Part shown: positions 4,319 to 23,393 of the stretch, in pieces | Numbering within the stretch: position 1 is the stretch's first letter | Layout: each line of letters starts with the position of its first letter | Assembly: GCA_017964255.1 (NCBI GenBank) | Contig: JAGCSI010000146.1 | Coordinates: forward strand, 5,860 to 69,859 | Direction of reading: 5' to 3' | Origin: Bacteroidales bacterium | Lineage (GTDB): Bacteria > Bacteroidota > Bacteroidia > Bacteroidales > WCHB1-69 | Length of the DNA: 64,000 nucleotides | Position numbers and translations under genes: made by a program | Notes under the pieces: generated by a model | What the model was told of the DNA's origin: nothing | What the model saw: only the letters and a program-made list of their open reading frames with translations | Database searches by the model: none

Positions 4319-5680
4319 ATGAAAATTTCAGTAGCAGGAACAGGCTATGTGGGCATGAGTATTGCCACTCTGCTCTCTCAACACAATGAAGTAACCGCTG
4401 TGGACGTGGTTCCAGAACGAGTTGACATGGTGAACCACAAAAAGTCACCTATCCAGGATGACTATATTGAGGACTTTTTGGCCCACAAACCCCTGACCAT
4501 CAGTGCCACCTTGGATCAAGAGGCGGGCTATCGCGATGCGGACTTTGTGGTCATTGCGGCTCCTACCAATTATGACCCTCAGAAGAATTTCTTCGATACC
4601 TCCGCAGTGGAAGCGGTCATTGATGCTGTGCTGAAGGTCAACCCCGATGCGGTGATGGTCATCAAGAGTACAATTCCGGTGGGATATACCCGTTCGCTGT
4701 ATGTGAAATACCACAAGCAGGGAGCAAAGAAGTTCAACTTGCTTTTCAGCCCTGAGTTCCTGCGCGAAAGCAAGGCCCTGTACGACAACCTTTATCCTTC
4801 CCGTATTATTGTGGGTATTCCGAAAATGATGAAGGGCAAGGATTATGAAGAGGAGAACGAAGCCATCAAAGCCCTCACCGATATCGACTGGATTAGCCAG
4901 AAAGCCCATCAGTTTGCCGACCTCCTCGTCGAAGGTGCTATTGCTCCATCCAAAGACAACTGTCAACTGTCAACTGTCAACTGTCAACTGAACAAGGGCA
5001 TCCCTGTCCTGTTCATGGGCATGAAAGAGGCCGAGGCCGTCAAACTTTTTGCCAACACCTATTTGGCTCTCCGTGTCAGCTACTTCAACGAGTTAGATAC
5101 TTACGCTGAAGTGAAAGGTTTGGATCCGCAGGCTATCATTGAGGGAGTGGGACTCGACCCCCGTATCGGTTCGCATTATAACAACCCCAGCTTCGGCTAT
5201 GGCGGCTACTGCCTGCCCAAGGATACCAAGCAGTTGCTGGCCAATTATGCCGATGTGCCCCAGAACATGATGAGCGCCATCGTGGAGAGCAACCGAACCC
5301 GTAAGGACTTCATTGCCGACCAGGTGCTGAAAATGGCTGGTTACTATGCTTATAGCGAGAATAATCAATTCAAAATTCAAAATTCAGAATTCAAAGTTCC
5401 GACTATCGGAGTGTACCGGTTGACCATGAAATCGAACAGCGATAACTTCCGTCAGTCGGCTATTCAGGGCATCATGAAGCGTATCAAGGCCAAGGGTGCC
5501 GAGGTGATTATTTATGAACCTACTTTGGAAGACGGCAGCACTTTCTTCGGTTCACAGGTGGTGAACGATTTGAACAAGTTCAAAGCTCAGAGCCAAGCCA
5601 TCATCGCCAACCGCTATGATAGTTGCTTGGATGATGTGAAGGAGAAGGTGTATACGAGGGATATTTTCAAAAGAGATTAG
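4319..5680 (+). CDS. ugd: UDP-glucose 6-dehydrogenase (copy 1)
   Basis: 453 aa. It has the N-terminal Rossmann motif [11 protein letters not shown] and the catalytic-region sequence [10 protein letters not shown]. It is highly similar to the second copy at 23720..25075. Confidence 0.9.
4957..4990 (+). repeat. Tandem heptamer CAACTGT x ~4.9 inside the ugd coding sequence
   Basis: The run caactgt caactgt caactgt caactgt caactg is read directly and translates as [12 protein letters not shown]. The same TCAACTR unit recurs in the spacer at 5925-5952. Confidence 0.9.
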
Positions 5681-7055: not shown

Positions 7056-7132
7056 CGTTTGTAAATAAAGTGTTTTTGTCTTTTAGTACAATTTGTACAG
7101 TGCAAGCTATAGGAAAAAATGTTAATCAGAAT

Positions 7133-8167
7133 ATGATAGAGGGTATAACTATAAATAATTTCAGAGGAATCCATACGTGTAAGATTGACGGCTTGTCGCA
7201 GGTGAATCTTTTCTTTGGAAAGAATAATTGCGGTAAGTCATCACTGCTTGAAGCTGTTTTTTTGGTATGTGGACAGTCGAATCCTCTTTTGCCAGCCTCC
7301 ATCAATGCTATGAGAACATATAACCGTATCTCTGAACAAGATATACGCTATTTCTTCTACAAAATGGACATCTCCAGAGAAATTTCTATTTCTACTTATG
7401 GCGGCCAGGAAAGACACCTCGCTATTTCTGCTTTTCAGCAAATGTCCAATGTGGATGTCAACAGCATCTCAACGGAACTTCTTCATCAGTATGGCCTGAA
7501 AATGAGATTCAGCACTAACGAAGGCGAATATAATTCAGAAGTACAATACGATACGCACGATCCTAATAAGATAGAGCAAAAGTCACAGGTTGATTCAAGA
7601 TATGTTGAGAAGTTGAAATGTATGTATCTGAGTCCCCGTTACGACTCAAATGCTTCTTTGGAGGGACTTCAGAATATTTACTTGAACAAAGACGAAGAAT
7701 TTCTCGCCGCGGCATTAAAGCTATTGGAACCGGCAGCCAAAGACCCCGTTTTTATTGAGAACGTTATGCTTGTTGATGTTGGATTGTCACAGAGAATCCC
7801 CATCAATCTTATGGGTGATGGTATCAGAAAGATAGTTTCTTTTTTGACCAGTATCTATGCTTGTCGGGGTGGTGTGGTTCTCTTCGATGAACTCAGTAAC
7901 GGTTTCCATCATTCGGTGATGAAACCTATGTGGGACATTGTGATTCGCGCTGCCGTGAAAAACGATGTGCAGGTTTTTGCCACCACCCACGACGAGGATT
8001 CCATTCGTGGATTCCAACAGGCGGCATTTGATTTTTCAAATGAGAAAGGGAAAGAAGTGGCTTCAGGTTTCAAGCTTCAGAAGATAAAAGACGATGAATT
8101 GAAGGAATATCGCTTCTCAATCAACCAGATTGGTTATGCGATGGAACAGGAAATGGAGATTAGATAG
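7133..8167 (+). CDS. ABC-type (AAA_15/AAA_21-like) ATPase, defence-associated architecture
   Basis: The preferred start is the ATG at 7133 (MIEGITINNFRG) rather than the GTG at 7070. The motifs are Walker A GKNNCGKSS, signature-like MGDGIRK, Walker B VVLFDELSNGFH and H-loop ATTHD. Confidence 0.75.
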   Translation: MIEGITINNFRGIHTCKIDGLSQVNLFFGKNNCGKSSLLEAVFLVCGQSNPLLPASINAMRTYNRISEQDIRYFFYKMDISREISISTYGGQERHLAISAFQQMSNVDVNSISTELLHQYGLKMRFSTNEGEYNSEVQYDTHDPNKIEQKSQVDSRYVEKLKCMYLSPRYDSNASLEGLQNIYLNKDEEFLAAALKLLEPAAKDPVFIENVMLVDVGLSQRIPINLMGDGIRKIVSFLTSIYACRGGVVLFDELSNGFHHSVMKPMWDIVIRAAVKNDVQVFATTHDEDSIRGFQQAAFDFSNEKGKEVASGFKLQKIKDDELKEYRFSINQIGYAMEQEMEIR

Positions 8168-8176
8168 GTAAAAATT

Positions 8177-8809
8177 ATGGTTCAGATTTTTATAGAAGGA
8201 CATGATAAAAAGGTTCCAGAAAGCGAATTCCTCAGTGCGATATTGAAGCATTTAGGTGTGCCTTCTGATAGATATGAGATTATGCCTACCAATGGCTATA
8301 AGAACCTTATGGATTCGGATGATGCATCCAATATAGGGTTAATGCGAGCCAATACTGATGTTGGTGGTAAAAATCTTGTTGTTTTTGATGCTGATACTGC
8401 TGATAATAATGGAGGATACGATGTTAGAAGAAATGAGCTGTTGAAGCGCAAGGAAGAATTGGGATTAGAGTTCGACCTCTTCCTCTGGCCTGATAATAAG
8501 AGTGATGGTGATGTGGAGGTGTTGATGGAAAGTATTGCCAGAAAGGATCTTTACCCCGAGTTCTTTGATTGCTTCGGTAAATATGAACATTGTGTCTCTC
8601 AACGAAAAAACGAAGACGGAAGTTGTTTCTATACTACACCAAACCGAAAGGGAAAACTGCATACCTATTTCAATTCAATTCCTATCTCCAAAATCAAGAA
8701 GAATAAGTTTGGCAGAGGAGAATGGTTATGGGAAGATAAGAATATTTGGAATCTTGATGCCGAATCGCTGAAACCCATCAAGGAGTTCTTGTTATCTAAT
8801 TTAATGTAA
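8177..8809 (+). CDS. Toprim-like small protein (DUF3226/DUF4276/RloB-like class)
   Basis: 210 aa. An N-terminal IFIEG (conserved Glu) and a later VVFDADT (DxD) fit a Toprim-type acidic signature. It lies 9 nt after the ATPase. Confidence 0.5.
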   Translation: MVQIFIEGHDKKVPESEFLSAILKHLGVPSDRYEIMPTNGYKNLMDSDDASNIGLMRANTDVGGKNLVVFDADTADNNGGYDVRRNELLKRKEELGLEFDLFLWPDNKSDGDVEVLMESIARKDLYPEFFDCFGKYEHCVSQRKNEDGSCFYTTPNRKGKLHTYFNSIPISKIKKNKFGRGEWLWEDKNIWNLDAESLKPIKEFLLSNLM

Positions 8810-9732
8810 TGAACGAAAATATTTGGACGGCGCAGGCGGTTGAGACTGCCGTCATTGAAGATAATTCCAATCTCGAAATAATACTCAGCAATTATTTCCA
8901 GACCTTCATTGAGAGGTTAGGCGAATATGAGATTAATATACAGGAGATTACTACTACTGAATTATTGACCCAAAAGATTCTTGAGGGCATTGAGAAGTTG
9001 GAAGTGTTGAGGAAAGAGTTTATTTCGGTGGTGAAAATATTTGTACCAAGCGATAATTCAATCCTTAAACAGTATCTTCCCCGTTTTTTTGATAATTTGC
9101 TTAAATTTTACGAGGAAAAAGGTATTAACCTGTATGCGGGAACCGGTGCCGATGTGCTTCGAAACGATCATTACCGTTTTTTTAATCAGTTTTTGTACAT
9201 ATCACTGACTTCAATTCTATTGGAAAACAAATGTTTTGAGACATTGAAATCCATTCTCCATGCAAAATATCAGGTATATGACAAGGCGTACCAAATTCTT
9301 CGCGATGTCAATTTCATCAGGTTTCGCACTTACAATTATACTTTGAATCAGTTTTTGAATACCACGTCTCCGAAAAGGATAAGTGTAACAGCAGACTATA
9401 TTCGTAATTACTCGGTCCCGTCAGAATTCGAAAAATTAATCAAGGCAGACATATTGCTTTACTATATTTCATTGTGGTATCATATAGACAAAATTTTTAA
9501 TGCTTCGTGGTTTCCCGAATTGAGTGTTTATAACCGAGATGAGCAGATTCTTCCCTATATGAAATCAAGAACTTATTTTGAGAAAGCCAAGGTGCTATTT
9601 GGTGTGAATACAGTGGAGGAGTATAAAAAATTGCTTGAAGACACCCGGGAAAATCCTGATTGGACGGGAATGTATCGTATACCCTTGGTTCAAACAGGTT
9701 TGTTGTATGATACTGTAGGGAGTGTAGAATAG
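8809..9732 (+). CDS. Hypothetical protein, third gene of the ATPase/Toprim-like operon
   Basis: 307 aa. The start overlaps the upstream stop (TAATG). I recognise no motif, and the composition looks helical. Confidence 0.6.
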   Translation: MNENIWTAQAVETAVIEDNSNLEIILSNYFQTFIERLGEYEINIQEITTTELLTQKILEGIEKLEVLRKEFISVVKIFVPSDNSILKQYLPRFFDNLLKFYEEKGINLYAGTGADVLRNDHYRFFNQFLYISLTSILLENKCFETLKSILHAKYQVYDKAYQILRDVNFIRFRTYNYTLNQFLNTTSPKRISVTADYIRNYSVPSEFEKLIKADILLYYISLWYHIDKIFNASWFPELSVYNRDEQILPYMKSRTYFEKAKVLFGVNTVEEYKKLLEDTRENPDWTGMYRIPLVQTGLLYDTVGSVE

Positions 9733-9956
9733 GTTAAACACAGACGTGACTTAAGCATAATCAAGTAGATAAGTTAATAAAAAGTGTTTTGTACCAACTA
9801 AATTTCAAGAAGAAGATAAAATGAAATCAGTATTGTTGAATTATGCCAAAAAGTGTTCAGGTAAAGATTATTTCAATGGGGTAGTTTATGACAGGGATTT
9901 GAATATGTCTGTTTTCAAAGAAGGAAAAAAATGATTGACATTAATAATTATTTTTG

Positions 9957-10556
9957 ATGAAAACGCAAACAAGATTTCCAAAATATCTACTGTATATCTT
10001 GTCAATGGCACCATTTTTCATCATCCTTGGACTGATGAGTATGGATATTCCAATTTGCTTTGACAATTATGCAGAATTTATTGGCTGGAAAACCCTTTGG
10101 CATAATACACGAGTCGGATTCTTTATCATCTTGGGTTCTGTTTTTGTAGAATTGGTTATTTACTGGATGTTTCAGCGTGTTTGTAAAAGATGTGCTGGTG
10201 AGGCAAGTGAAAAGATAACTGTAATAAAAAATCAAAATTTTGAACTGATGTCATTCGTGACCTCCATATTCCTGCCATTAATTAGCTTTCAATATAACCA
10301 ATTGAGTCACTGGATTGTTACTGCGATTATTGTCTGTTTGATTGGGTATATATTTTGTCACGCAGATGCCTACTATACCAATCCAACGCTTGCGCTTTTT
10401 CGGTATAGGCTATATGATGTTGAACTTGATAACCAACAAGCAAATAATAGCGAAACACGTTCTATCACTATAATAGCTCAATCAGTGCTGATGGTGGGTG
10501 ATAAGGTGCGTTGTGTTTCGATGACCGATGGGGTATCTTATGCTAAAAAAGTATAA
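9957..10556 (+). CDS. Multi-pass membrane protein, KwaA-like by architecture
   Basis: About 199 aa from the ATG at 9957. It has four hydrophobic segments: YILSMAPFFIILGLM, VGFFIILGSVFVELVIYW, LMSFVTSIFLPLISF and WIVTAIIVCLIGYIF. Confidence 0.55.
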   Translation: MKTQTRFPKYLLYILSMAPFFIILGLMSMDIPICFDNYAEFIGWKTLWHNTRVGFFIILGSVFVELVIYWMFQRVCKRCAGEASEKITVIKNQNFELMSFVTSIFLPLISFQYNQLSHWIVTAIIVCLIGYIFCHADAYYTNPTLALFRYRLYDVELDNQQANNSETRSITIIAQSVLMVGDKVRCVSMTDGVSYAKKV

Positions 10557-10559
10557 TTT

Positions 10560-11516
10560 ATGAATAAGCCGGAATTAATTGAAAAAGTGGGTTTTGTTCT
10601 TGAGGAAGGCTATAAGGAACTACAACTCTATGGCTTTGTTGCAGGAGATGACAATCCCTACAGTATCAGTATTTCAAATGACTTGGAAACAGAGTTGATT
10701 GCCGTTGTCGCTTCGGGTGTTCAATCCTTGTTGGTTGATAAAGAGTATGAGATAGTATCTTTCTCAACCGCTGACGAAAGAAAAGACCGTTATTACCTTT
10801 ACGATTTGGAAGAGATTCCCGAAAGAATCATTCAAATGTCCTTTGTTATTGGAAACCACAATGTTGAAAGTTTTAATCTTCAGCAACACGATGTAACAGA
10901 GATTAACACATTGATACTATCAGTTTCTGACGGCGACGGTCATTCGTTTTCGTTATACAAGTTACTGTCGCCTGTGGAAAAAGTGGTTACCACTTCAAAG
11001 TCAATTTTAGCAAGACTTGGCGTTGACGATGCGGTGCTTAAAGAGGAGAAGTCGCCATTGCTCAAAATCGGACCGAGGTTTCAAATAGTTTTTGTTGATA
11101 ATTATTATCTTTTCTTGGAATCATCGTCCATTGAATCAAACTTCAAATTACACCAAATACTAAATAATGAGGCTGCCAGAAACATACATGTGATACAAGA
11201 AACCAACCTATTAAAAGATGTGGCCAAACTTCAACAATACGCTGAAAAAACGGCTTTTAGCCGAAAACTTGTTAATGTGATGCGAAATTCAAAAGTCATA
11301 AAAGAACATATTTCAAAAGACAAAGTATTTGAATTCATAGGGAATGATGCAAAACTAAGTGAGCAGTTGTGCATAAAAACTATTGAAGGTGAGCAATTCA
11401 TAGACATTAGGAATCTTGAAAGTGCTAAATGTTTCTTGGATTTGCTTAATGATGAGTTTGTGTATTCCAAACTAACAGGCCAAGAATATCAGGCGGTTGA
11501 TAAGGATGAAAGATAA
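10560..11516 (+). CDS. Soluble ~320-aa partner, KwaB (DUF4868)-like by size and position
   Basis: 318 aa, starting 4 nt after the membrane protein. It has no enzymatic motif. The pairing and sizes match the Kiwa two-gene layout. Confidence 0.45.
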   Translation: MNKPELIEKVGFVLEEGYKELQLYGFVAGDDNPYSISISNDLETELIAVVASGVQSLLVDKEYEIVSFSTADERKDRYYLYDLEEIPERIIQMSFVIGNHNVESFNLQQHDVTEINTLILSVSDGDGHSFSLYKLLSPVEKVVTTSKSILARLGVDDAVLKEEKSPLLKIGPRFQIVFVDNYYLFLESSSIESNFKLHQILNNEAARNIHVIQETNLLKDVAKLQQYAEKTAFSRKLVNVMRNSKVIKEHISKDKVFEFIGNDAKLSEQLCIKTIEGEQFIDIRNLESAKCFLDLLNDEFVYSKLTGQEYQAVDKDER

Positions 11517-11539
11517 TTTTTGTATGATGAGTTGAAAGC

Positions 11540-12382
11540 ATGAAAAAATTAGACTGGAAAACATACGAAGAACTAGTAAAAGACATATATGAGAGTCTTG
11601 GGAAGGCCTCAAACGTCAAAATATTAGGTTATGGCAATGGTTGTAAACGAAAAGGAAACTCAAGTGTAGAACATCAGATAGATGTTTTGACTTCACATAA
11701 TGACGGCCTACATGATTATTTGACTGACATCGAATGTAAATATTGGAATCAGAAAGTAAATAAAGACATAGTGATGAAGGTGAAAGAAATTGTGGCTGAC
11801 TGCAATTTCTCAAAAGGTATAATTGTATCAAAAATTGGATTTACCTCAGATGCTATTGATTACGCAAGATTCGTAGGTGTTGGTTTGGTTGAGTTGAGGG
11901 AGATAACAGAAGAGGATTGGAAAGGAAGAGTAAAGACAATTGTTCTTAAAATAGTTGCTAAAACCCCAGTGTTAACGTCATGTCAGATAAACATGATTTC
12001 AGATGACCCCAAGGTTATGTATCAGGAAACCAAGGGAGTTACAGCCAATGCAACACTTACAGAAATATGTAAGCCAGATGGTACAAAAATAACCTTGTCA
12101 GAATTTATACAAAATGGTTTATTCAAAAAAATCAGTAGCGAAGAGCCCACTGATGAAATAACAGAGCATTATTTTTTCGAAGAAGGCACAACTATTATAT
12201 ACAGAGAAACAGGTATCACACATAAGTTGAATACAATTATACTCTCAGGGAAGATTGAAACAGAAACTATGAATAGTGTGATAGATGGTAGTGATGAGGT
12301 ATTATATTATATGAAGAGTATTTTTGAAGGCATGGTACTTACAATTAGAAAAGATGGCAGAATTGTAAAACAGAATAATTGA
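11540..12382 (+). CDS. Mrr-like (PD-(D/E)xK) restriction-endonuclease-domain protein with an unknown C-terminal domain
   Basis: 280 aa. The N-terminus reads WKTYEELVKDIYESLG ... HQIDVL ... DIECKYW ... GIIVSKIGFTSDA, which fits the Mrr_cat pattern (D...E-x-K). Confidence 0.65.
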   Translation: MKKLDWKTYEELVKDIYESLGKASNVKILGYGNGCKRKGNSSVEHQIDVLTSHNDGLHDYLTDIECKYWNQKVNKDIVMKVKEIVADCNFSKGIIVSKIGFTSDAIDYARFVGVGLVELREITEEDWKGRVKTIVLKIVAKTPVLTSCQINMISDDPKVMYQETKGVTANATLTEICKPDGTKITLSEFIQNGLFKKISSEEPTDEITEHYFFEEGTTIIYRETGITHKLNTIILSGKIETETMNSVIDGSDEVLYYMKSIFEGMVLTIRKDGRIVKQNN

Positions 12383-12387
12383 AAAAA

Positions 12388-13344
12388 ATGAAAACCATCT
12401 GCATTGATATAGACGGAACCATAAGCCACTACATAGAATGGGTTGACTCAAAGACATTCGGTGAGGTTTTGCCTCATTGTGCCGAAACGATACATCACCT
12501 CAAGGCCGATGGTTGGTTTGTCATTATTTATACAACAAGAGTTGACAAGGATGAAATAAAGAATTTCTTGGACAAAAACAATGTCCCCTTTGATGCCATC
12601 AATGAGAATCCGAACCAACCTAACAATGCAATAGGAGGAAAGCCAATAGCCGATGTTTATATTGATGATAGAGCGATTCAGTTTGACGGTGATTGGGAAG
12701 GAGCATACACGAAGATAACAGGTTTCAAGTCTTGGGAGGAAAAACCTGAAGTGAAACAGCGGCCCACAAAAGAGTATAGTGCTGAATTGATGATAGCGGA
12801 TTTCTCTCAGTGCATGGAAATGCATCGACATTACGATTCCTTAAATTGGCAAATAACCAAGTTTGCATTTGGTGAAATACTTGTTGCTATTGGTGCCTGC
12901 TGGACAGTTTACTCATTTGATATGGCAAAAGAAACAGCTCCGGAACTGAAATGGTGGGCAATAGGCATGATAGGACTTGTTAGCTGGCTGTATGGAATTT
13001 TGTCAATCTACACAATAGTGAAAAACAGAGGATATTTTGTCAGAACATCCCGTCATATCAATGAACTACGACATCATGCCATCGCAAGTAAGCCATTGGG
13101 TTTTGAGAACTCAGCACACTTTTGGGAAGATCCAACCTATCCAAAAGTCAGAGATTGGAAAAGCACCCAGTTTTTCAGCCTTTATATGCTTGTGTTATTA
13201 CTAATGGCAATTTCATATTTGACCACGTTTTCTTTTGTTCATCTGCTTAACGGTTTTTGTTATTGGATTGGCTGGCTATCTGTGCTTGCAACTATAGGGA
13301 TTTGGCTGATTATTGTTTTTACGGCAGTGAAAGAAAAGTTTTAA
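12388..13344 (+). CDS. HAD-phosphatase-like domain fused to a 4-TM C-terminal domain
   Basis: The ATG at 12388 is preferred (a TTG at 12379 is possible, overlapping the upstream stop). The HAD motifs are I ICIDIDGT, II YTTR and IV YIDDR. The C-terminal half has four hydrophobic helices (e.g. ILVAIGACWTVYSF, WWAIGMIGLVSWLYGILSIY). Confidence 0.6.
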   Translation: MKTICIDIDGTISHYIEWVDSKTFGEVLPHCAETIHHLKADGWFVIIYTTRVDKDEIKNFLDKNNVPFDAINENPNQPNNAIGGKPIADVYIDDRAIQFDGDWEGAYTKITGFKSWEEKPEVKQRPTKEYSAELMIADFSQCMEMHRHYDSLNWQITKFAFGEILVAIGACWTVYSFDMAKETAPELKWWAIGMIGLVSWLYGILSIYTIVKNRGYFVRTSRHINELRHHAIASKPLGFENSAHFWEDPTYPKVRDWKSTQFFSLYMLVLLLMAISYLTTFSFVHLLNGFCYWIGWLSVLATIGIWLIIVFTAVKEKF

Positions 13345-13357
13345 ATAAATAGGATTT

Positions 13358-14419
13358 ATGAAGAAAGATAAATATTTGATACGTTTTTTCCAAGTCGGAA
13401 ATGGCACAAAGGGTGGTGACGCTATTCTGATTCGATTGTTTGATGATAAAGATAAAGAACACCTTGTTTTGATAGATGGAGGCTATAAGGAAACAGGAGA
13501 TAAGATAATAAATTATATCAAAGGAACTTGTTCAACCAGCCATATAGATATTGTTTTTAATACACATCCAGACAGAGACCATATATCTGGTTTGGTGACA
13601 CTTTTTGATGATAAAGACATTACGATAGGATGTTTGGTTCTTAACCGTCCTTGGAAGGATGCTAAATTCACCAAGGATATGTTTGACGATAGTAAAATCA
13701 CAGACAGAAGCCTCGTTCAACGTCTCAAAGACAATTTTAATCAAGCCGAAGAATTGGAATCAATCGCCAATGATAGAAAAATTAGAATAGAAAGAGCTTT
13801 TGCCGGTGTGTGTTGTTACGATGGACTTATTAGGGTATTGGGGCCTTCAAAGACGCTTTACGAAAGGGGGCTTTTGGCATCCGACAAAACACCTGAAACT
13901 TATATTGAAGCAGGTTTGGGTGACTATTCACCAGCGGCATATAAAGAGGAGGTTTATGATTCAAGTCAACCGATTGAATGGTTCGATGATGAGCAGACAT
14001 CTGCTGTAAACCAAACAAGTTTTGTTATAGCCTTGGATTTAGGAAAGCAAAAGGTGTTGTTTACGGGTGATGCAGGAAAAGAGGCTCTTAATGATGCATT
14101 AGACTATTATGTGTCAATAGGAGGTAATCCTAAAGATTTCACAATAGTTCAGTTGCCGCACCATGGAAGTAGAAAAAACATAGCCCCATCAATTATCAAT
14201 AGATTTGGCAATCCCGAGTACATTGTGTCATGTCCACCAGATGGTGAAAGCGAGGGCCATCCGTCCAGAAGATTGATGAATAAAATATTAGAGATTAACC
14301 CCAAGGCGGATATTTATTTCACGAAGAAGGTGAACTTTGTTTTCCATGAGAATGTTCCTGTGACAAATTGTGAACCGCAAAAACCGGCAACGGTTTATGA
14401 TAAAATGGATGGGAGATAA
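13358..14419 (+). CDS. Metallo-beta-lactamase-fold hydrolase, ComEC/Rec2-related type
   Basis: 353 aa. It has NTHPDRDHISG (an HxHxDH-like motif) and QLPHHGSRKN, both typical of the ComEC-type MBL domain. Confidence 0.7.
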   Translation: MKKDKYLIRFFQVGNGTKGGDAILIRLFDDKDKEHLVLIDGGYKETGDKIINYIKGTCSTSHIDIVFNTHPDRDHISGLVTLFDDKDITIGCLVLNRPWKDAKFTKDMFDDSKITDRSLVQRLKDNFNQAEELESIANDRKIRIERAFAGVCCYDGLIRVLGPSKTLYERGLLASDKTPETYIEAGLGDYSPAAYKEEVYDSSQPIEWFDDEQTSAVNQTSFVIALDLGKQKVLFTGDAGKEALNDALDYYVSIGGNPKDFTIVQLPHHGSRKNIAPSIINRFGNPEYIVSCPPDGESEGHPSRRLMNKILEINPKADIYFTKKVNFVFHENVPVTNCEPQKPATVYDKMDGR

Positions 14420-14447
14420 AACGACAAATATCAAGATTGTAGACAAA

Positions 14448-14514
14448 CAGCGGCCTTCCGGTATTAACGTGCAGCCGGAGTCGCGATAGGGGTGGGAAGG
14501 TCATCTACACAGCC
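14448..14514 (+). promoter_or_regulatory. Leader RNA motif, copy A (5' half only)
   Basis: It shares the blocks GTGCAGCCGGAG ... TAGGGG ... AAGG ... ACACAGCC with copies at 22187, 23521 and 46544. It lies 31 nt upstream of the epimerase ATG. Confidence 0.45.
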
Positions 14515-14544
14515 TGAATATCCCGACGAAATAAAACTAAAACA

Positions 14545-15801
14545 ATGAATATACTCGTTACCGGTGCGGCCGGGTTTATCGGTGCCAGTTTGGTGATGCG
14601 CCTCCTTCGCGACATGACCGAGGGCACCATCGTCGGCCTCGACAACCTCAACAGCTATTACGATGTCTCCCTCAAGGAGTACCGTCTGAAGAAGCTCGAT
14701 GCGCTCTATGCTCAAAGGATGGGGATTCCGGGTCCAGCCCGGAATGAGGGGACGTGTGTTCGGAATGAGGATTCCTCGTCGAGGGCGAAGACCCGCAATC
14801 TCCATTACGAATTTGTGAAGGGAAGTATTGCCGACCGCGAGCTGGTGAACAAGTTGTTTGAAGAATACAAGTTCGACATTGTGGTGAACCTGGCGGCACA
14901 GGCGGGCGTGCGGTACTCTATTGAGAATCCCGATGTGTATATCGAGAGCAACATCATAGGGTTTTACAATATCCTTGAAGCCAGTAGGCATTCTTACGAC
15001 CTCGTAGACTCCTCGTCGCAGGCGGGAGCCCGCGATCCTAATGCTGTCCCTCATTGCGGGCTTGACCCGCAATCTCAAGGGGATTCCGGCTCGGAGGCCG
15101 GAATGAGGGCTCAAGGCCAGAATGAGGGGTATAAAGGTGTTCAGCATCTCGTGTATGCTAGCAGTTCCAGTGTATATGGCGGCAACAAGAAAGTGCCCTT
15201 CAGCGTGGATGACCGAGTGGATAATCCTGTAAGTTTGTACGCCGCCACCAAGAAAAGCAACGAACTCTTCGCCCACTGCTACAGCAAACTCTACAACATC
15301 CCCACCACCGGCCTCCGTTTCTTCACCGTCTATGGCCCCGCTGGCCGTCCTGACATGGCTTATTTTGGTTTCACCAACAAGCTTCTGAAAGGTGAGACGA
15401 TACAGATATACAACTATGGCAACTGCCGCCGCGATTTCACCTACGTGGACGACATAGTGGAAGGAATTGTAAGAGTGATGCAGAAAGCCCCCGAGAAGCG
15501 TAATGGCGACGACGGCCTGCCGATTCCGCCTTATAAGGTGTACAACATTGGTGGCGGCCAGCCTGAGAATCTATTGGACTTTGTGCAGACTTTGCAGGAA
15601 GAACTGTTGAGAGCAGGTCTCCTTCCGCAGGATTACGATTTCGAGGCTCACAAGCAGCTGGTGCCGATGCAGCCTGGTGATGTACCCATCACGTATGCTG
15701 ACGCTACGGCATTGGAACGTGACTTTGGGTTTACGCCTAAAATTACGCTGAGAGAGGGATTGAGGAAGTTCGCGGAGTGGTATAAAGGATACTATGGTTG
15801 A
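14545..15801 (+). CDS. NAD-dependent sugar-nucleotide epimerase (UDP-glucuronate 4-epimerase-like SDR) carrying two in-frame repeat insertions
   Basis: 418 aa. It has the N-terminal VTGAAGFIG motif and the catalytic YAATK. About 65 extra residues (GIPGPARNEG..., HCGLDPQSQGDSGSEAGMRAQGQNEG) are encoded by GC-rich palindromes. Confidence 0.8.
   Translation: MNILVTGAAGFIGASLVMRLLRDMTEGTIVGLDNLNSYYDVSLKEYRLKKLDALYAQRMGIPGPARNEGTCVRNEDSSSRAKTRNLHYEFVKGSIADRELVNKLFEEYKFDIVVNLAAQAGVRYSIENPDVYIESNIIGFYNILEASRHSYDLVDSSSQAGARDPNAVPHCGLDPQSQGDSGSEAGMRAQGQNEGYKGVQHLVYASSSSVYGGNKKVPFSVDDRVDNPVSLYAATKKSNELFAHCYSKLYNIPTTGLRFFTVYGPAGRPDMAYFGFTNKLLKGETIQIYNYGNCRRDFTYVDDIVEGIVRVMQKAPEKRNGDDGLPIPPYKVYNIGGGQPENLLDFVQTLQEELLRAGLLPQDYDFEAHKQLVPMQPGDVPITYADATALERDFGFTPKITLREGLRKFAEWYKGYYG
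14721..14800. repeat. GC-rich palindromic element(s), in frame inside the epimerase
   Basis: It contains ATTCCGGG-TCCAG-CCCGGAAT-GAGGG (14725-14750), a further CGGAATGAGG half-site and the palindromes GAGGA-T-TCCTC and CCTCG-T-CGAGG. Confidence 0.85.
14996..15132. repeat. GC-rich palindromic element cluster, in frame inside the epimerase
   Basis: It contains CCCTCATTGCGGG-CTTGA-CCCGCAAT, ATTCCGGC-TCGGAG-GCCGGAAT-GAGGG and the half-site GGCCAGAATGAGGGG. Confidence 0.85.
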
Positions 15802-17014
15802 AAGAAATAGTGAAGAAACAAAAAATAGTGTAAATATGGAACTTAAACCTGAAATAGAGAAACAAATTAAAGAACAGCTCGTTGAAAAGGAACAAGTATG
15901 GTCGAAGTATGCTTGTAAATCAAGTGATGCGATTCAGTTTTATCACCGTAAAGAGGATATAAGACCTGCTTTCTTTCATGATGTTGACAAAATCATTCAT
16001 TCTCGCTGTTACAGTAGATACATTGATAAGACACAGGTTTTTTATTTGATAGAAAACGATCATATCACCCATCGTGTTCTCCACGTTCAGTTGGTTTCCA
16101 AAATTGCAAGAACCATTGGTCGGTTTTTAAATCTGAACGAGGATCTAATAGAGGCTATATCCTTGGGACATGATGTTGGACACACTCCTTTTGGACATAA
16201 CGGAGAGAGAATAATTTCGGATTTTTGTGAAAGGAAGGGAGAAGGAATTTTCGAACATAATGTGCAAAGTTTCAGATTGTTTCATGAGATAGAAAAGAAA
16301 GGTGATGGTGTCAACATGTGTGTTCAAACATTAGATGGCATTATTTGTCATAATGGAGAACTTCTGGTACCTCGATTTGATTGTGATAGAACAAAAACAA
16401 AAGAAAAGCTTTTTAGTGAATATACAGAAAGTTTGAAAAACAAAGGAGTTTCTGCTAAAATGAAACCTATGACTTTGGAAGGCTGTGTGATGAGAATATC
16501 TGATATAATCGCATATATTGGTAGGGACATTGAAGATGCAATCAAACTTCAGCTAATAGACAGAAAAGATATTCCTCGTGAAATAACAAAGGTTTTGGGT
16601 GATAATAACAAAGAGATAATCAACAATCTCATAATTGATCTTGTTAATAACAGTTATGGGAATGATTACATTTCATTTTCCACTGAAGTATTTAACGCAT
16701 TGGATGAACTGAAAAAATGGAATAACAAAAACATTTATAGTAATCCTGAAAAAATGGCTCAAGACGATAAGATTAAGAAAATGTTTGATTACATGTTGGA
16801 AACAAATCTTGTATTTCTGAATGAAAATAACACTAAATCTAATATAATCAAATGGTTAGATGGGGAAATGTCACATTCATATATAGATAAATCTTCTAAT
16901 GTACGAATTGTGGCAGATTATGTGTCTGGTATGACAGACGATTATTTAATGAATAGTTATAAAGAATTGGTTCTCCCAAAATCATTCGGTATTAATTTCA
17001 GCAAAAAGGCATAG
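15794..17014 (+). CDS. dGTP triphosphohydrolase-like HD-domain protein (dNTPase)
   Basis: 406 aa. It has HRVLHVQLVS and LGHDVGHTPFGHNGE, the dGTPase-family HD signature. The start overlaps the epimerase stop. The gene is AT-rich. Confidence 0.8.
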   Translation: MVERNSEETKNSVNMELKPEIEKQIKEQLVEKEQVWSKYACKSSDAIQFYHRKEDIRPAFFHDVDKIIHSRCYSRYIDKTQVFYLIENDHITHRVLHVQLVSKIARTIGRFLNLNEDLIEAISLGHDVGHTPFGHNGERIISDFCERKGEGIFEHNVQSFRLFHEIEKKGDGVNMCVQTLDGIICHNGELLVPRFDCDRTKTKEKLFSEYTESLKNKGVSAKMKPMTLEGCVMRISDIIAYIGRDIEDAIKLQLIDRKDIPREITKVLGDNNKEIINNLIIDLVNNSYGNDYISFSTEVFNALDELKKWNNKNIYSNPEKMAQDDKIKKMFDYMLETNLVFLNENNTKSNIIKWLDGEMSHSYIDKSSNVRIVADYVSGMTDDYLMNSYKELVLPKSFGINFSKKA

Positions 17015-17058
17015 TCTCGGTTTATTGTTCCTACATTCATCGTTATTATTGATATAGA

Positions 17059-17469
17059 AACTACGGCAATTGTCGCCGCGATTTCACTTACATTGACGAT
17101 ATAGTTGAGGGAATAGTAAGAGTGATGGCCAAGGCTCCGGAGAAGAAGACTGGCGAGGATGGACTGTCGGTTCCTCCCTATGCGTTGTATAACATCGGTG
17201 GAGGCCAACCCGAGAATCTCCTGGATTTTGTACAGACCTTGCAGGAAGAACTGTTGAGAGCGGGTGTTCTTCCGCAGGATTACGATTTTGAAGCTCACGA
17301 GCAGCTGGTTCCGATGCAGCCTGGCGATGTGCCCGTTACGTATGCGGATAGTACCGCATTAGAGAGAGATTTTGGCTTTACTCCAAAGATAACGTTGCAA
17401 GAAGGTTTGAGAAAGTTCGCGGAGTGGTATAGAGAATACTATAAAAAGAACGAAATAGTGCGAGGATAA
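17059..17469 (+). pseudogene. Orphan 3' fragment (~135 codons) of a second epimerase allele
   Basis: 17059-17450 aligns with 15411-15795 (NCRRDFTYIDDIVEGIVRVM...KFAEWY), with many substitutions; I estimate roughly four-fifths identity by eye. No N-terminal half is present. Confidence 0.85.
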
Positions 17470-17983
17470 AGAAGACATCAAAAACATAACAAGAAAAGGA
17501 GAAGCACGGAAGTATCCATTGTGGTATACGGAGATAGCATGGGGTAGCAGAGTGGAAGAAGATTGGGAACACCTCACGATAGCGAGGAAAGTTGAAGATA
17601 TTGATAAGCCGAATACGAGCGTGGAGCGCGAGAAAAAATACTCAAAACGATGAACAACTCAATAGAACAATTTGAAGATATGTATTCTCGCTGGGCGTTG
17701 CTAGACAAGTTGGGGAAGGAGATATAATTGGCGGAGAAGTGGCAGAGAACACAGGATATTTATCAGGTATTACAGTGGTCGTATAGGGTTAATGGAAGGC
17801 TCACAGCGGAAGAGTGTAATTACGTGAAGCAGTTGAACCAGTGGTTCCAGGTGCTGCAAGCACAGAAAATGGAGGTTGACATAGATTTTGCTAATGAGAT
17901 GATGAAGCACCTTGCTAAGATGATGGTGAGCCGCCTGTAATAGAATTGCGAACTAAAAGATTTGTGTAAACAACGACGACGAT

Positions 17984-18106
17984 ATGGCATCCAAATTACG
18001 TCTTGAGATTCACCGTATAACCCTCCAAAAGCAAGTCTATGATGACGTTGTTCGGTTGGTGTCAGTAGACGTACCAAAAGTTGACGATGACGATTTGCCG
18101 TTATGA
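17984..18106 (+). CDS. Possible 40-aa small ORF, translationally coupled to the next gene
   Basis: It reads MASKLRLEIHRITLQKQVYDDVVRLVSVDVPKVDDDDLPL. Its TGA overlaps the ATG at 18103 (ATGA). It falls below the ORF-track length cutoff. Confidence 0.3.
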   Translation: MASKLRLEIHRITLQKQVYDDVVRLVSVDVPKVDDDDLPL

Positions 18107-18897
18107 CAAATAATAATGTATTTAAAATTATGATCAGATTTTTGTTTTTGTTTTTAACATTGCCATTCCTTTCTTGTTCAATCTCAGAAGAGGACCCAAT
18201 AGGAACAATCGATCAAGTCGTGCAAGACACGACAACTAGTATAGATACAATAATAGAAGTAAGCCCCGATACTGCGTTATTCTTGTATAAACATAAAGAG
18301 ACAAATGCTTATGCAATGCCACCTCAAGAAAAAAAGAAAACCCATTTTGATTGGGGTTTCATAGCTGTGTTAATAGCACTAATTGCCTTATGTGTGAATT
18401 TTATTCAGTCAAAAAAAAGTAGCAATCAAGCAGAAAAAACGTATGACAAATTTGTCACAACATCAGAAAAACAGTTTAATATACAAACGAATACTCTTGA
18501 AACAATAAAAAACCAGACAGAAAAGATTTATAGCAACAATAATAAAAGAGATTTTATCGGTTATCTATCAGATTGTTATACTTCAATAGGCTTGGTGGGT
18601 AAATATTTGAAAGATAATTTCTCAAATATTATTTGGAACGTACAAACCAATGATTATGTGTTTGGATTATTACAACCAGCCATTAAGGCAGCCACGGCAA
18701 TGGAAATTACGCTATCCTCATTAGAAGAGTTTGATAATAATGAGGAATTTGTAAATTCGGTAAAACTATGTGCTAAATTGGGTGAAAAAGAATTCATTAA
18801 TCGTGAAGATGTAGAATTGATGATTCATCAGTTAGAGGAATGTAAAATTGTTTTTGAAAAATACATTAAAAAATTAAAAGGAGGACAAAATGAATAA
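18103..18897 (+). CDS. Membrane-anchored hypothetical protein (possible lipoprotein signal plus one internal TM)
   Basis: 264 aa. The N-terminus is hydrophobic with a Cys (FLFLTLPFLSCS). There is an internal TM (FIAVLIALIALCVNFI) and a helical C-terminal domain. Confidence 0.6.
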   Translation: MTNNNVFKIMIRFLFLFLTLPFLSCSISEEDPIGTIDQVVQDTTTSIDTIIEVSPDTALFLYKHKETNAYAMPPQEKKKTHFDWGFIAVLIALIALCVNFIQSKKSSNQAEKTYDKFVTTSEKQFNIQTNTLETIKNQTEKIYSNNNKRDFIGYLSDCYTSIGLVGKYLKDNFSNIIWNVQTNDYVFGLLQPAIKAATAMEITLSSLEEFDNNEEFVNSVKLCAKLGEKEFINREDVELMIHQLEECKIVFEKYIKKLKGGQNE

Positions 18898-21109
18898 TTT
18901 AGAATTGAATACTTGTTTGAGGTACACTCCTTTTGATAACAAGGTTGCAACTATTTTTGGCAATGATGCTGATGCGGTGAAGTCCTTTTATGATAATTTG
19001 TTTGAGCAGTATGAACAAAAATATTATAATCCACTGAAGCAAAAACTGGATTCTGCCATTCAGGCTATTGAAAAAAGGTTTATATATTTTGTGGGACCTG
19101 CTGGTTCTGGGAAGACAACATTCCTGCATTATTATTTCATGAATATACCCAAAGAAGACAATGTCAATTATAGTTTTGTCAATTTGGTTGAGTACCCAGC
19201 AATCTCTATGGATGATGATACACTGAAGAGAAGTCTTTGCAACTATATTGACAATGTGCTGGATGAAGAAGCAATAAATAGGTTTATAGATAAATATTTG
19301 GAAAGTGGAAGTCACATGTCCGCTTTAGTAGAAGGAGGCCAGTATAAAGATACTCAATTGCTTAATTTTCTGTTCAGGAGAAAATACGAGAATAAACTTA
19401 GCGCTTTGACGAGTTTGCTTAATTGTTACAACCCTGTCCAACTAGCTGCTATTTTTGTCATCTTGTCCATTTATAAAAAGAATGGTAAAGAAGCACAAAA
19501 TGTCTTTGTGTTCGATAATATAGATGAATTGTCATCCACGTATATAGGAAAAAAATTTGTTTCTTTTGTGTTGGATGTGTTTTCTGTCGTTCAAGAATTT
19601 TTTTATACAATAGACACGACTTTTTTTGAGACAGGTTCACCTTATATCGACCATTGTACTTTTCTCATTGCCATACGAGCCATAAATGCTAAACTTCTTG
19701 GAGAGAGCCAACAACTAAACGAAAGGGTCAGGTCTCAAAATGTAAAGATAGAATTTAATCCTTATATTTATTCCTATCCAAAGATGTTGAAAAAAAGGAT
19801 TGATTTTTACGCTGGCATTTCACAAGGTATAGATGAAACAGAGAAGAGATTGGCCTTCCGTAGATATAGTCAGATGGTGGCTGATGAGAAACAATATGTA
19901 GTGAGCCATCTTGAACCATTATTGAACTTTGATAGGCGTATTCTCACTTTGTCTTTCAATGATATTCTTAATAAATCAACTTGGTTCGGTAATTTAGAGT
20001 CACTTCCTGATGGTATTGGACGTAGAGGGGCTGTTATTCTTAATACGCTTGATTTTCTTTATCACGAAAACAACAACTCCTCCATGTTTGCCACTTATGT
20101 TCAAAATGACATCAAATGCAATACAAAAGAAGAGTCTAAAAAGTGTAATATTCATCGTATGTGTTTTACATTGCTGAGCAATTTAAGCGGTTTGAGTTCT
20201 ATCGCAAAAAACCAAAGATCAAATGTTCTTAATGATGAAAGTGTATTCTTCGAACATTTGGAAGGAGTAAGATTAGATTTATTTGTCAATCGGTTGCGTA
20301 AATGGTATTCGGACGACGAAATAAAAAATGTTTTGGACAAATTGGTTAGCATTTCCTCGTCCAACTATGAAGTCCCTGTATTCCTTGAAGGGGATGTTGT
20401 TGATACATTTACTGAGACTTATTACAAATCGCAAGAAACAAACATCTCTACGCCATCATATGTCCATTCGCTTGTTGACCACGTAATGACAATGTCAGAC
20501 TCGGCTAAACAGAGTGTTTCTATTAAAATAAACCCACTTTGTGTCATTTACCCTTACCATATTTTTATTCATTTTGAATATTTTAATCTGCTCTCTTTTT
20601 ATGCTCCTGGGCAAAAAAACAATGATATATTAAAACCATTGTTTATAATTGATGATAAAAAAGAGCTTAGGGAATGTCTTGATAGAGTTTGGTTGACGTT
20701 CGAAAATATGATAAATGGCATGCAGACACATTTTTGCAATGAGTGTGGAGGGAATTGCAAAAAAAATGTCAATGGAACAAAGTGCAAAGAACAAGTTCTC
20801 AAATTTAAGGACAAGGACTTCTGTTTCAATGGTGCATTGTATTCTACAAGATGTATCTCTTCAATAGTGAATTATCTAGACTATTATCGAACTTTCATTT
20901 GGAAAAAGTCAGAGTTGGATAAAGAGATTCAGAATATACTCATTACAGAAATCAGAAAATATATTGATAAATATTGGGAAAAGAAGATACAAGACGACAC
21001 CGCGAAGGAGAAAATGGCCGAAATAAGTCGCAATATTAGGGATATTGAGGGGAAGGGTGAATACGCAAAATCCTGTATGTTGGAGTCAGATGATTTTGGA
21101 ATCAATTAG
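18890..21109 (+). CDS. Large P-loop NTPase of unknown family
   Basis: 739 aa. It overlaps the upstream gene by 8 nt. The motifs are Walker A GPAGSGKT (nt 19094-19117) and Walker B-like NVFVFDNIDE. A Cys cluster (CNECGGNCKKNVNGTKC) lies near the C-terminus. Confidence 0.7.
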   Translation: MNNLELNTCLRYTPFDNKVATIFGNDADAVKSFYDNLFEQYEQKYYNPLKQKLDSAIQAIEKRFIYFVGPAGSGKTTFLHYYFMNIPKEDNVNYSFVNLVEYPAISMDDDTLKRSLCNYIDNVLDEEAINRFIDKYLESGSHMSALVEGGQYKDTQLLNFLFRRKYENKLSALTSLLNCYNPVQLAAIFVILSIYKKNGKEAQNVFVFDNIDELSSTYIGKKFVSFVLDVFSVVQEFFYTIDTTFFETGSPYIDHCTFLIAIRAINAKLLGESQQLNERVRSQNVKIEFNPYIYSYPKMLKKRIDFYAGISQGIDETEKRLAFRRYSQMVADEKQYVVSHLEPLLNFDRRILTLSFNDILNKSTWFGNLESLPDGIGRRGAVILNTLDFLYHENNNSSMFATYVQNDIKCNTKEESKKCNIHRMCFTLLSNLSGLSSIAKNQRSNVLNDESVFFEHLEGVRLDLFVNRLRKWYSDDEIKNVLDKLVSISSSNYEVPVFLEGDVVDTFTETYYKSQETNISTPSYVHSLVDHVMTMSDSAKQSVSIKINPLCVIYPYHIFIHFEYFNLLSFYAPGQKNNDILKPLFIIDDKKELRECLDRVWLTFENMINGMQTHFCNECGGNCKKNVNGTKCKEQVLKFKDKDFCFNGALYSTRCISSIVNYLDYYRTFIWKKSELDKEIQNILITEIRKYIDKYWEKKIQDDTAKEKMAEISRNIRDIEGKGEYAKSCMLESDDFGIN

Positions 21110-22386: not shown

Positions 22387-23393
22387 ATGAAGCAACGTAA
22401 TTATTCTATAGATAGTTTAAAATTTATATGCGCTGTCCTTGTCGTTTTTCTTCATACGCAATGGAATTTTCAAGATGAATTCCTACCTATTACGAGATGT
22501 GCCGTTCCATGTTTCTTTATTATTTCAGGATATCTTCTTTATGAAGGAAGTGGGATAAAGCCAGAACGTCTGAAGCGCAATATTTCTCATGTTGTCAAAA
22601 TTTCATTGTGGGCAAGCATATTCTATATTGTTTGGATAGAGACGGTGTCATTACTAACGCTTCGTGAAGTGTGGCTTCCAACATCTAGAAATATTGTGGA
22701 TTGAATTCTCTTTAATGAAACTCCGTTTTGTTTTCATCTTTGGTACCTTTTTGCATATTTATATGTGCTTCTTATTATGATGGTGATCAACAGGTATAAC
22801 TTGTGGAAGTTTCTCTATATAGCAGTTCCGGTTTTGTTATTGACCGACTTAGCGTTTGGAACTTATAGTATTGTTCTATGGGGTTGGGAACTACCATTCT
22901 ATTATGTTAGGAATTTTCTTTTTGTAGGATTGCCCTATTTTGCTATAGGAACGATGATAAAAAAACTAAAGAGGTCTTCGTGTGGCCTCAAGGCCATAAT
23001 AGCCAGGTTCAATGTGCAGTATATGTTTAGTGTTTTAATGTGGTGGGGGTGGTAATTGTTTGTATATTAACAACTTATGCAGAAAAGTCTTTACTACTGT
23101 CTTTAGACTCTTGTGCAACAAGAGAGCATTATTTAAGTTCAACATTCTTGTCAATTTCTATTTTTTTGTTAGCATTGACATATAAAAGTGCCTCTAAGTC
23201 ATTGTTCTCTGAAATGGGCGAAAAAGATTCTTTGTATATCTATATTTTTCATCCATTATTCATTTCCTTGTGCAATGCATTGTTCATAAAGATTCACATG
23301 CAAGCAATATATTTGTGGGTAGCACCAATAATAGTGTTGATAACAACAATGGTTTTTGTTAAGTGTATTAGAAAGTTGAAGTTTGTCAAATGA
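22387..23393 (+). pseudogene. Acyltransferase family 3 (O-acyltransferase) gene broken into three ORFs
   Basis: ORFs 22387..22704, 22765..23055 and 23040..23393 are consecutive hydrophobic pieces. The first begins with the family-typical SLKFICAVLVVFLHT. Stops and frameshifts lie between the pieces. Confidence 0.7.

Follow-up and report, generated by a model that had tools for sequence, protein, structure and literature searches.

The window analysed here, a stretch of 64,000 nucleotides (nt) from a Bacteroidales bacterium (contig JAGCSI010000146.1, positions 5,860 to 69,859), carries inside a capsule locus a run of three genes, called g1, g2 and g3 in what follows, the last two of which form a conserved two-gene module. 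The product of g2 is a membrane protein in which a phosphatase domain of the haloacid dehalogenase (HAD) superfamily is followed by four transmembrane (4TM) helices, and that of g3 is a ComEC-like metallo-beta-lactamase (MBL). Our leading interpretation, which we hold with roughly even confidence, is that g2 and g3 make up a mobile anti-phage defence system within a defence islet of a Bacteroidales capsule locus, consisting of a putative MBL DNase and its 4TM partner. The HAD-4TM/MBL pair appears to be unnamed and is a good candidate for an addition to the known anti-phage defence systems; the literature on PDC-M48, on BT0820 and on MBLs with a membrane partner yielded no description of it. 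Across the loci compared, the two genes are linked, their catalytic residues are conserved and their surroundings are rich in defence genes.

Loci were taken from genomes, metagenomes and exact-protein look-ups (L-numbers label the compared loci and P-numbers proteins), and 45 of them hold a full-length HAD-4TM gene, or 30 after removal of redundancy. An MBL gene lies directly beside HAD-4TM on the same strand in 43 of the 45, that is, in 28 of the 30 non-redundant loci, and both loci without an adjacent MBL end at a contig edge. The adjacent MBL was detected by tblastn in 42 of the 45 loci; these include L003, where ATG-only calling of open reading frames (ORFs) had missed a gene whose tblastn match is covered by a 281-amino-acid (aa) ORF at 9148-9993. 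In L005, Pfam identifies the upstream gene (360 aa) as an MBL. Synteny in other genomes, on which the original prediction had staked a cassette of all three genes, is thus strong for the g2-g3 pair and fails for the g1-g2-g3 trio. The loci range over Bacteroidota and include one metagenome-assembled genome of Chloroflexota (L005).

Gene order within the module varies: MBL>HADTM is the commonest arrangement, HADTM>MBL is found in this window, L087, L097 and L103, and MBL>HADTM>MBL in L092, L098, L105 and L111. The linkage has therefore been kept through rearrangement. Pairwise identities among the HAD-4TM proteins correlate with those among their MBL partners (r = 0.81, a descriptive value and not a formal test), and a search started from the MBL side led to P0423, an MBL followed by a split HAD and 4TM. 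Often, two divergent MBL paralogues (33-58% mutual identity) accompany one 4TM gene, in tandem or on either side of it (L092-L094, L098, L105, L111, L185 and L187); a heterodimeric nuclease and diversified specificities are possibilities for such doubled MBLs.

The 4TM domain is also found without a fused HAD. A profile made from the C-terminal 197 residues of g2 and searched against 1.84 billion cluster representatives recovered 321 of them at E<=1e-3, of which 197 also pass E<=1e-10. Among the 150 best matches, stand-alone proteins of ~190-220 aa that span the whole profile predominate, and none of these 150 exceeds 374 aa. In the three loci checked, stand-alone 4TM proteins always lie beside an MBL of the same family (confirmed by hidden Markov models), two of the three having doubled MBLs. 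Additionally, three lineages unrelated to each other (L117 6007-7064, L118 5989-7070 and L192 5098-6058) encode HAD and 4TM in two distinct ORFs, and the split always falls at the same domain boundary, after ...F-K-(T/P)-W-E-(Q/E-R). Stop and start codons overlap in L117 and L118 (ATGGGAGCAATGA in L117), and the two ORFs of L192, a type found in 94 blocks of the collection, overlap by 62 nt, so that either translationally coupled genes or programmed frameshifting could be involved. Since the 4TM domain stands next to an MBL whether the HAD is fused, split or absent, the module amounts to MBL plus 4TM, and the 4TM domain is, as judged from sequence, the constant partner of the MBL.

The MBL and its membrane partner

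The ComEC-type MBL originally predicted for g3 is borne out by our searches. Its nearest solved relatives are ComEC MBL domains, namely 9ic4 (sequence profile E 8.5e-12, Foldseek E 2.5e-15) and also 30bt, 9ic4 being the top PDB fold match of the AlphaFold2 (AF2) model (predicted local distance difference test score, pLDDT, 93); the NCBIfam matches to ComEC (E 6e-7 and 1e-6) are local to the MBL region. The metal-ligand motifs HxDxDH, TGD and HHGS are kept in g3 and in every partner MBL, and all the motifs that had been quoted for the three genes were found and proved invariant in the family alignments of g1, g2 and g3. The protein is ~90 aa longer than the ComEC MBL domain: ~160 residues separate HxDxDH (70-75) from TGD (236-238), including a lower-confidence stretch of the AF2 model at ~181-200. 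It has no signal peptide, TM segment or channel domain. PADLOC matches g3 to PDC-M48B (E 5e-61; model PDLC04676, g3 residues 3-283), LmuA (2e-38), RTasMBL (1e-28) and Avs1a (5e-20).

MBLs resembling g3 (~30% identity over 97% of its length) are also encoded by P2-like phages; their genes lie past replication gene A, close to the right end of the record, as in L189 (NC_049389.1 29621-30706) and L190 (ON170032.1 ~23108-25002). They are annotated as 'tail protein' (phrog_7043) or 'hypothetical', and the former label looks like a propagated misannotation. In the Ralstonia P2-like phage YO009_3, the MBL gene is followed, with a 4-nt overlap, by a gene for a 268-aa multi-TM protein. Membership of this protein in the 4TM family was considered and rejected, homology not being detectable; with its unrelated TM protein, the phage arrangement is an analogous MBL+TM pair.

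The fusion of a minimal HAD phosphatase to four TM helices, as read earlier in g2, is upheld by similarity to BT0820, by the AF2 model (mean pLDDT 88.6) and by hydropathy. BT0820 (2obb) is the nearest PDB entry to the HAD domain both by sequence (E 1e-4) and by fold (TM-score 0.76); the domain also matches phrog_1238 (E 6e-28) and the NCBIfam BT0820 family (NF046079, E 9e-12), the latter at 45.5 bits and hence below the equivalog cutoff of 165. Its catalytic set D7/D9, T50, K85 and D93/D94 (318-aa numbering, as for all g2 residues) is invariant or nearly so. Four long helices follow, with TM segments by hydropathy at 156-177, 189-212, 259-288 and 289-318. The HAD-4TM family comprises ~110 full-length clusters at 90% identity, sharing 37-93% identity. 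The relatives, Segatella copri (L002) and Prevotella sp. khp1 (P0400), suggest that the DNA probably comes from a member of the Prevotellaceae.

Conserved polar motifs of the 4TM domain (RHYD, KNRxYF, INExR and STQ) lie on its predicted cytoplasmic face. Its invariant polar residues (R147-H148-Y149-D150, N213-R214-x-Y216, N225, R228, P252 and S259) are all placed at predicted cytoplasmic helix ends or in the basic TM2-TM3 loop, which in the model suggests a cytoplasmic juxtamembrane site for interaction or ligand binding. The fold search gave a PDB match for the HAD part alone and nothing meaningful for the 4TM domain, for which there was no Pfam match either, and no PADLOC v2 model matched HAD-4TM or stand-alone 4TM proteins (E<=0.1). 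A relationship of the 4TM domain to KwaA of the Kiwa system was considered and rejected (hhalign probability 0.3%).

The HAD domain of g2 has relatives in other fusions. P0117 and P0118 (344 aa) carry a HAD 49-53% identical to that of g2 behind a PolyA_pol (CCA-adding/nucleotidyltransferase) head, and P0120 joins a g2-type HAD to a short-chain dehydrogenase; the capless HAD clade of g2 is a promiscuous module. The PolyA_pol fusion, together with the weak similarity of the g2 HAD to the PHROG of T4 polynucleotide kinase-type phosphatases, offers weak hints of nucleotide or nucleic-acid substrates.

Proposed roles and competing explanations

The defence-like nature ascribed to the region by the original prediction is upheld by the surroundings of the pair. 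A PADLOC scan of 93 proteins flanking the module in ~27 loci (a listing without matched background) gave strong matches to DarT, DarG, AbiU, SoFic, bSEFIR, Type IIG restriction-modification (RM), a DrmMI-like methyltransferase, dGTPase and KwaA/KwaB, and equally to the candidates PDC-S31, PDC-S47, PDC-M11B and PDC-M64B. Away from capsule loci, the pair lies directly after a tyrosine integrase and beside a housekeeping mutase gene in L003, next to an MmeI-like RM gene in L005, among genes for cargo of the type IX secretion system in L004 and near SIR2/Thg1 genes in L095. No protease domain was found in g1, g2, their neighbours or the related loci examined.

As to the enzymatic substrates, the direction of signalling and the trigger of the pair, we infer the following scheme. 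Like its relatives in defence systems, the g3 MBL would serve as the effector, in the form of a metal-dependent DNase. Its membrane-embedded partner, the 4TM protein, would restrain, hold, position or license it by way of the conserved juxtamembrane face on the cytoplasmic side, in answer to an infection cue at the envelope; for related MBL proenzymes, licensing falls to a protease, whose part the 4TM protein would play here. The HAD would be an accessory catalytic module that dephosphorylates nucleotides or another phosphoester, leading to nucleotide depletion as described for the CRISPR-associated effector Chp.

Several observations weigh against this interpretation. The pair is mostly found within capsule loci, where it is encoded on the same strand as the operon. 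In the fold search with the g3 model, second place goes to Pce, a teichoic-acid phosphorylcholine esterase, and the g2 HAD shows distant similarity to 'capsule biosynthesis phosphatase' (TIGR01689 E 0.0017; PDB 9iqw E 0.03). Related defence MBLs need a protease, which these loci lack. No 4TM domain was found in IMG/VR viral contigs. Finally, the nucleotide-depleting role of the HAD is itself uncertain, given that catalytic point mutants of Chp kept their toxicity.

A wider reading, which we put forward tentatively and consider less likely than not, is that 4TM proteins, with or without HAD, and ComEC-like MBLs constitute a widespread and undescribed form of membrane-coupled nuclease immunity. 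It would range from Bacteroidota to Chloroflexota, with clusters at 50% identity numbering in the hundreds, and a dedicated membrane protein and no protease would license a ComEC-type DNase at the envelope. Such a system could attack DNA during its entry into the cell and so be the defensive counterpart of competence. As part of the same tentative reading, the module would in Bacteroidales be co-transcribed with phase-variable capsule operons.

Among the alternatives, the one that survives best, in our judgement still an unlikely one, reverses the roles of the two proteins: the HAD-4TM protein would be the killer, disrupting the membrane and/or dephosphorylating nucleotides in the manner of Chp or Rst_Hydrolase-3TM, and the MBL would be its sensor or trigger, for example by processing phage nucleic acid or a nucleotide signal. 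In this regard, Chp (HAD-4TM-CARF) is itself a toxic effector whose toxicity is lost on HAD deletion, and TM proteins commonly serve as effectors in abortive infection (PMC9122126). The partner MBL of one stand-alone 4TM protein weakly matches Anti-Pycsar_Apyc1, a cyclic-nucleotide phosphodiesterase, and divergent doubled MBLs beside one 4TM gene are as expected of a diversifying sensor. However, the nearest characterised relatives of the MBL are effector DNases and no sensors (PMC12642450, PMC12799240), no pore-forming or SLATT-like signature emerged from Pfam or the PDB fold search, and most members of the 4TM family do without the HAD, so that nucleotide depletion cannot be the core activity.

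Slightly less probable again is that the module serves the capsule or another surface glycan, a Pce-like phosphodiesterase and a membrane-anchored sugar- or lipid-phosphate phosphatase together trimming or recycling phosphorylated capsule intermediates. The operon-strand position in most Bacteroidales examples, the distant resemblance of the HAD to capsule biosynthesis phosphatases and the Pce fold match would fit such a role, as would L092, where the pair stands directly between glycosyltransferases, and L005, with BacA 1.5 kb downstream. Nevertheless, the flanking capsule genes change from locus to locus, which leaves the pair without a constant glycan-pathway partner, bona fide defence genes occupy the same insertion zone, and the pair is also found off capsule loci, beside integrase or RM genes. 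With regard to g3 itself, the best profile matches are defence-specific MBL models (E to 5e-61), the nuclease ComEC outscores Pce by 5-6 orders of magnitude in E-value in the fold search, similar MBLs are present in P2-like phages, and the protein has neither a signal peptide nor a TM segment.

If the pair is indeed a defence system, it would represent protease-independent control of ComEC-like MBL DNases, which have recently been shown in many immune systems, as well as a second, CRISPR-independent setting for HAD-4TM membrane effectors, and a large unannotated family of 4TM proteins would be flagged as an immune component. The finding also illustrates the capsule loci of Bacteroidales as insertion hot spots for defence genes, and immunity encoded at such sites may accordingly be switched on or off with the capsule type that phages use as receptor. 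With respect to annotation, the comparisons correct the labels 'tail protein' and 'phosphoheptose isomerase' that have been propagated in these families.

The Mrr-type gene, Kiwa and the capsule-locus islet

Three back-to-back genes had been described on the forward strand and all three exist (Table 1). The junction of g1 and g2 is a 4-nt overlap if g2 starts at its mechanically called TTG (12379) and a 5-nt gap if it starts at the ATG (12388) where its homologues all begin; g2 and g3 are 13 nt apart. The Kiwa-like pair noted 23 nt upstream of g1 is a true Kiwa. As Kiwa is defined by the 4TM protein KwaA and KwaB/DUF4868 together, it is confined to 9954-11516, and g1-g3 are no Kiwa components.

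Table 1. Coordinates of Kiwa, g1 and the conserved pair within the window
Feature	Position	Strand	Length	Remark
KwaA	9954-10556	+		PADLOC E 6e-42
KwaB	10560-11516	+		PADLOC E 8e-57; Pfam KwaB also matched
g1, Mrr_cat protein with a C-terminal domain without known relative	11540-12382	+	280 aa	Outside the conserved pair
g2, HAD-4TM membrane protein	12388-13344	+	318 aa from ATG	Core component 1 of the conserved pair
g2, N-terminal capless (C0) HAD phosphatase domain	12388-12750	+		
g2, C-terminal 4TM domain	12751-13344	+		
g3, ComEC-like metallo-beta-lactamase-fold hydrolase, predicted nuclease	13358-14419	+	353 aa	Core component 2 of the conserved pair

The reading of g1 as an Mrr-type core with an unfamiliar C-terminal domain stands. 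Residues 2-122 match Pfam Mrr_cat (E 2e-10; 41.1 bits against a gathering cutoff of 21), and 23 homologues all keep the catalytic D48 and E65-x-K67; the C-terminal domain (~150 aa) found no relative in Pfam, NCBIfam or the PDB. The family counts at least 667 clusters at E<=1e-3, with proteins of ~270-280 aa from Leptospira to Flavobacteriia, labelled 'restriction endonuclease' where they are named at all, and its members occur by themselves as a rule. The nearest relative of g1 (88% identity) lies 24 nt past KwaA-KwaB in several contigs, with no HAD-4TM/MBL after it. Relatives that follow Kiwa without g2 and g3 are found in L177-L180, and others stand alone in capsule loci (L181-L184).

At the DNA level, KwaA, KwaB and g1 (9942-12385) align as one block to L177 with 89.9% identity, the alignment stopping 3 nt beyond the stop codon of g1 with nothing like g2 or g3 next, and g2 and g3 (12383-14419) align as a separate single block to L087 with 69% identity. 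The breakpoint between the two modules therefore coincides precisely with the g1/g2 junction. L087 has, in the position of g1, an ORF that runs into the start of HAD-4TM and is unrelated to g1. A g1 homologue adjoins a HAD-4TM module in just one other locus, L098 (60% identity), where it is found on the other side of the module, past the second MBL of an MBL-HADTM-MBL arrangement. We found no KwaA or KwaB match in any other HAD-4TM locus, and Kiwa thus stands beside the module in this window alone.

The model of the original prediction, a three-component system of g1, g2 and g3 possibly coupled to Kiwa as a five-gene unit, is improbable: tight spacing, which makes co-transcription likely, and the L098 homologue speak for it, but 26 of the 28 non-redundant MBL-adjacent loci have no g1, and the gene sits at the other end of the module in L098 and forms with Kiwa a block (90% identity) that exists without g2 and g3, while its relatives stand alone elsewhere, the gene in its place in L087 is unrelated and no other HAD-4TM locus holds Kiwa. 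Instead, we favour the view that g1 encodes a restriction nuclease of the Mrr type (Type IV-like) which works independently as a single gene and would have arrived with the Kiwa block.

The capsule-locus setting recognised earlier is evident from Wza-like, Wzc-like, CpsB, UDP-glucose dehydrogenase (UGDH) and RmlA genes upstream of the islet and from epimerase, UGDH and glycosyltransferase genes downstream of it. The three genes had also been called AT-rich, and their region does have a GC content of 0.35-0.38 against 0.47-0.49 in the conserved flanking capsule genes; most of the variable capsule locus is, however, as AT-rich, so that their composition is not distinctive. A scan for Sigma-70 promoters and terminators, which is ill-suited to Bacteroidales promoters, gave no signal above shuffled sequences.

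The defence islet itself lies inside the capsule operon, from rmlA to the next epimerase (7070-21109), on a single strand throughout, and two UGDH paralogues (4319-5680 and 23720-25075) flank it on either side. Its 5' part consists of an AbiL/PARIS-like AAA_15/AAA_21 ATPase (7070-8167), a DUF3226 protein (8177-8809) and an ORF of 307 codons (orf307) ahead of Kiwa. Mrr, HAD-4TM plus MBL and a dGTPase-type gene follow Kiwa in that order, and at the 3' end the gene of a TM protein (18103-18897) overlaps that of a 739-aa AAA_22/NACHT-like ATPase (18890-21109). Other defence genes occupy the same kind of site in related loci, and capsule loci therefore seem to be defence hot spots. Expression of the islet may be phase-variable together with the capsule.

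Within the islet, orf307 (8809-9732) resembles the C-terminal part of SEFIR-TIR proteins (PADLOC bSEFIR 2e-8) and is 31% identical to the 437-aa SEFIR/TIR protein that adjoins the module in L081-L086. It has neither a SEFIR nor a TIR domain. Possibly it is a remnant that lost its effector part through truncation or recombination, or else a sensor module in its own right.

The dGTPase-type gene (PADLOC dGTPase 6e-59; best NCBIfam match PRK01286.1-2 at 6e-86, under cutoff) has the 3' end of the epimerase gene on one side and a duplicate of that end, ~390 bp long, on the other (an arrangement covering 15125-15795, 15794-17014 and 17059-17469). The ORF at 17122-17469 repeats the epimerase C-terminus nearly word for word, and both copies of the 3' end align to the single epimerase of L177; it looks as if the dGTPase gene had been inserted by recombination at a conserved capsule gene. 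The epimerase ORF (14545-15801) also has extra GC-rich, low-complexity, in-frame segments at ~14689-14814 and 14982-15124, e.g. SSSQAGARDPNAVPHCGLDPQSQGDSGSEAGMRAQGQNEGYKG, which are missing from, or diverged relative to, the L177 orthologue and are overlapped by a 270-aa antisense ORF (14464-15276). These segments may be an inserted element or mark a disrupted gene. Farther along, downstream of the capsule genes, the AT-rich stretch 52297-57897 holds a very large ORF of 1866 aa and then one of 327 aa without a Pfam match.

Comparison with known systems

Canonical Mrr and other Type IV restriction endonucleases share with g1 the Mrr_cat PD-(D/E)xK core, but the catalytic domain of g1 is N-terminal, whereas canonical Mrr carries an N-terminal winged-helix reader. 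Extending Kiwa to g1-g3 would presuppose a conserved linkage of g2 and g3 with KwaA and KwaB, which the loci do not show.

Defence MBLs of the ComEC-like branch are Zn-dependent double-stranded DNases, made as proenzymes that an adjacent protease activates (PMC12642450, PMC12799240). These protease-MBL modules include HamM of HamMAB, the trypsin-MBL of Avs1/2/4 and DRT- and Lamassu-associated MBLs, represented in PADLOC by Avs1a, RTasMBL, LmuA and PDC-M48B. They have in common with g3 the ComEC-like MBL fold with HxDxDH, TGD and HHGS, as reflected in E-values from 5e-20 to 5e-61, and they differ in that the g3 loci are without a trypsin-, caspase- or subtilisin-like protease and have the 4TM membrane protein as constant partner. 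Against the NCBIfam model for Avs1a of AVAST type 1, g3 scores 86 bits with a cutoff of 420, and no STAND NTPase gene is adjacent; for the 6A-MBL system it scores 38 bits with a cutoff of 220, and partner genes of a ubiquitin-like system are absent. Of Lamassu (LmuA-MBL type), the LmuA MBL model alone is matched, no SMC-like LmuB or LmuC gene being adjacent.

The view that the genes match no known defence system needs qualification, since the B (MBL) component of the uncharacterised PADLOC candidate PDC-M48 is present as g3; it holds insofar as PDC-M48A gave no match (E<=0.1) among the islet proteins of the window, HAD-4TM or stand-alone 4TM proteins, and g2 has no model. If PDC-M48A is an analogous membrane protein, the present module would be a variant of PDC-M48.

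Likewise, the remark that no description of such a HAD::TM fusion had been seen is out of date, as two comparable architectures have been reported. The first is Chp, a HAD-4TM-CARF effector from type III CRISPR loci of Bacteroidales/Prevotella (BbChp and PsChp), which is membrane-bound, dephosphorylates ATP, dATP and IMP, depletes ATP and IMP and arrests growth; its HAD catalytic point mutants are still toxic, and deletion of the HAD abolishes toxicity (PMC12715507, 2025). The likeness to g2 is one of architecture, an N-terminal HAD followed by four TM helices (for g2 by AF2 and hydropathy). Whereas Chp continues into a CARF domain at its C-terminus and belongs to type III CRISPR loci, g2 stops a few residues past TM4 and is paired with an MBL, and no cas genes were seen around it. 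Moreover, the N-terminus of Chp, as read from cloning oligonucleotides (MKKRLFFDMDNVLVDF; motif IV at 128/129), suggests that its HAD is larger and NT5C-like, unlike the capless BT0820-like HAD of g2. The second is Rst_Hydrolase-3TM, a HAD-like hydrolase plus TM protein from P4 satellites that blocks T7 (Rousset et al. 2022; PMC9122126). Compared by architecture, it recalls the split HAD and 4TM of L117, L118 and L192, and it differs in having no MBL partner, in its E. coli P4 satellite hotspot and in three rather than four TM helices.

ComEC/Rec2, the best structural and sequence relative of g3, is a membrane-associated nuclease acting on incoming DNA. Its MBL is fused to a channel-forming competence domain, whereas g3 is separate and soluble and the 4TM protein is not detectably related to ComEC.

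Taken as a whole, these comparisons place the module outside Kiwa, AVAST type 1, Lamassu, 6A-MBL, the protease-MBL pairs, Chp and ComEC, from each of which it departs in a defining feature. It is probably a new variant of MBL-nuclease defence, the novelty of which would be its membrane-bound partner.

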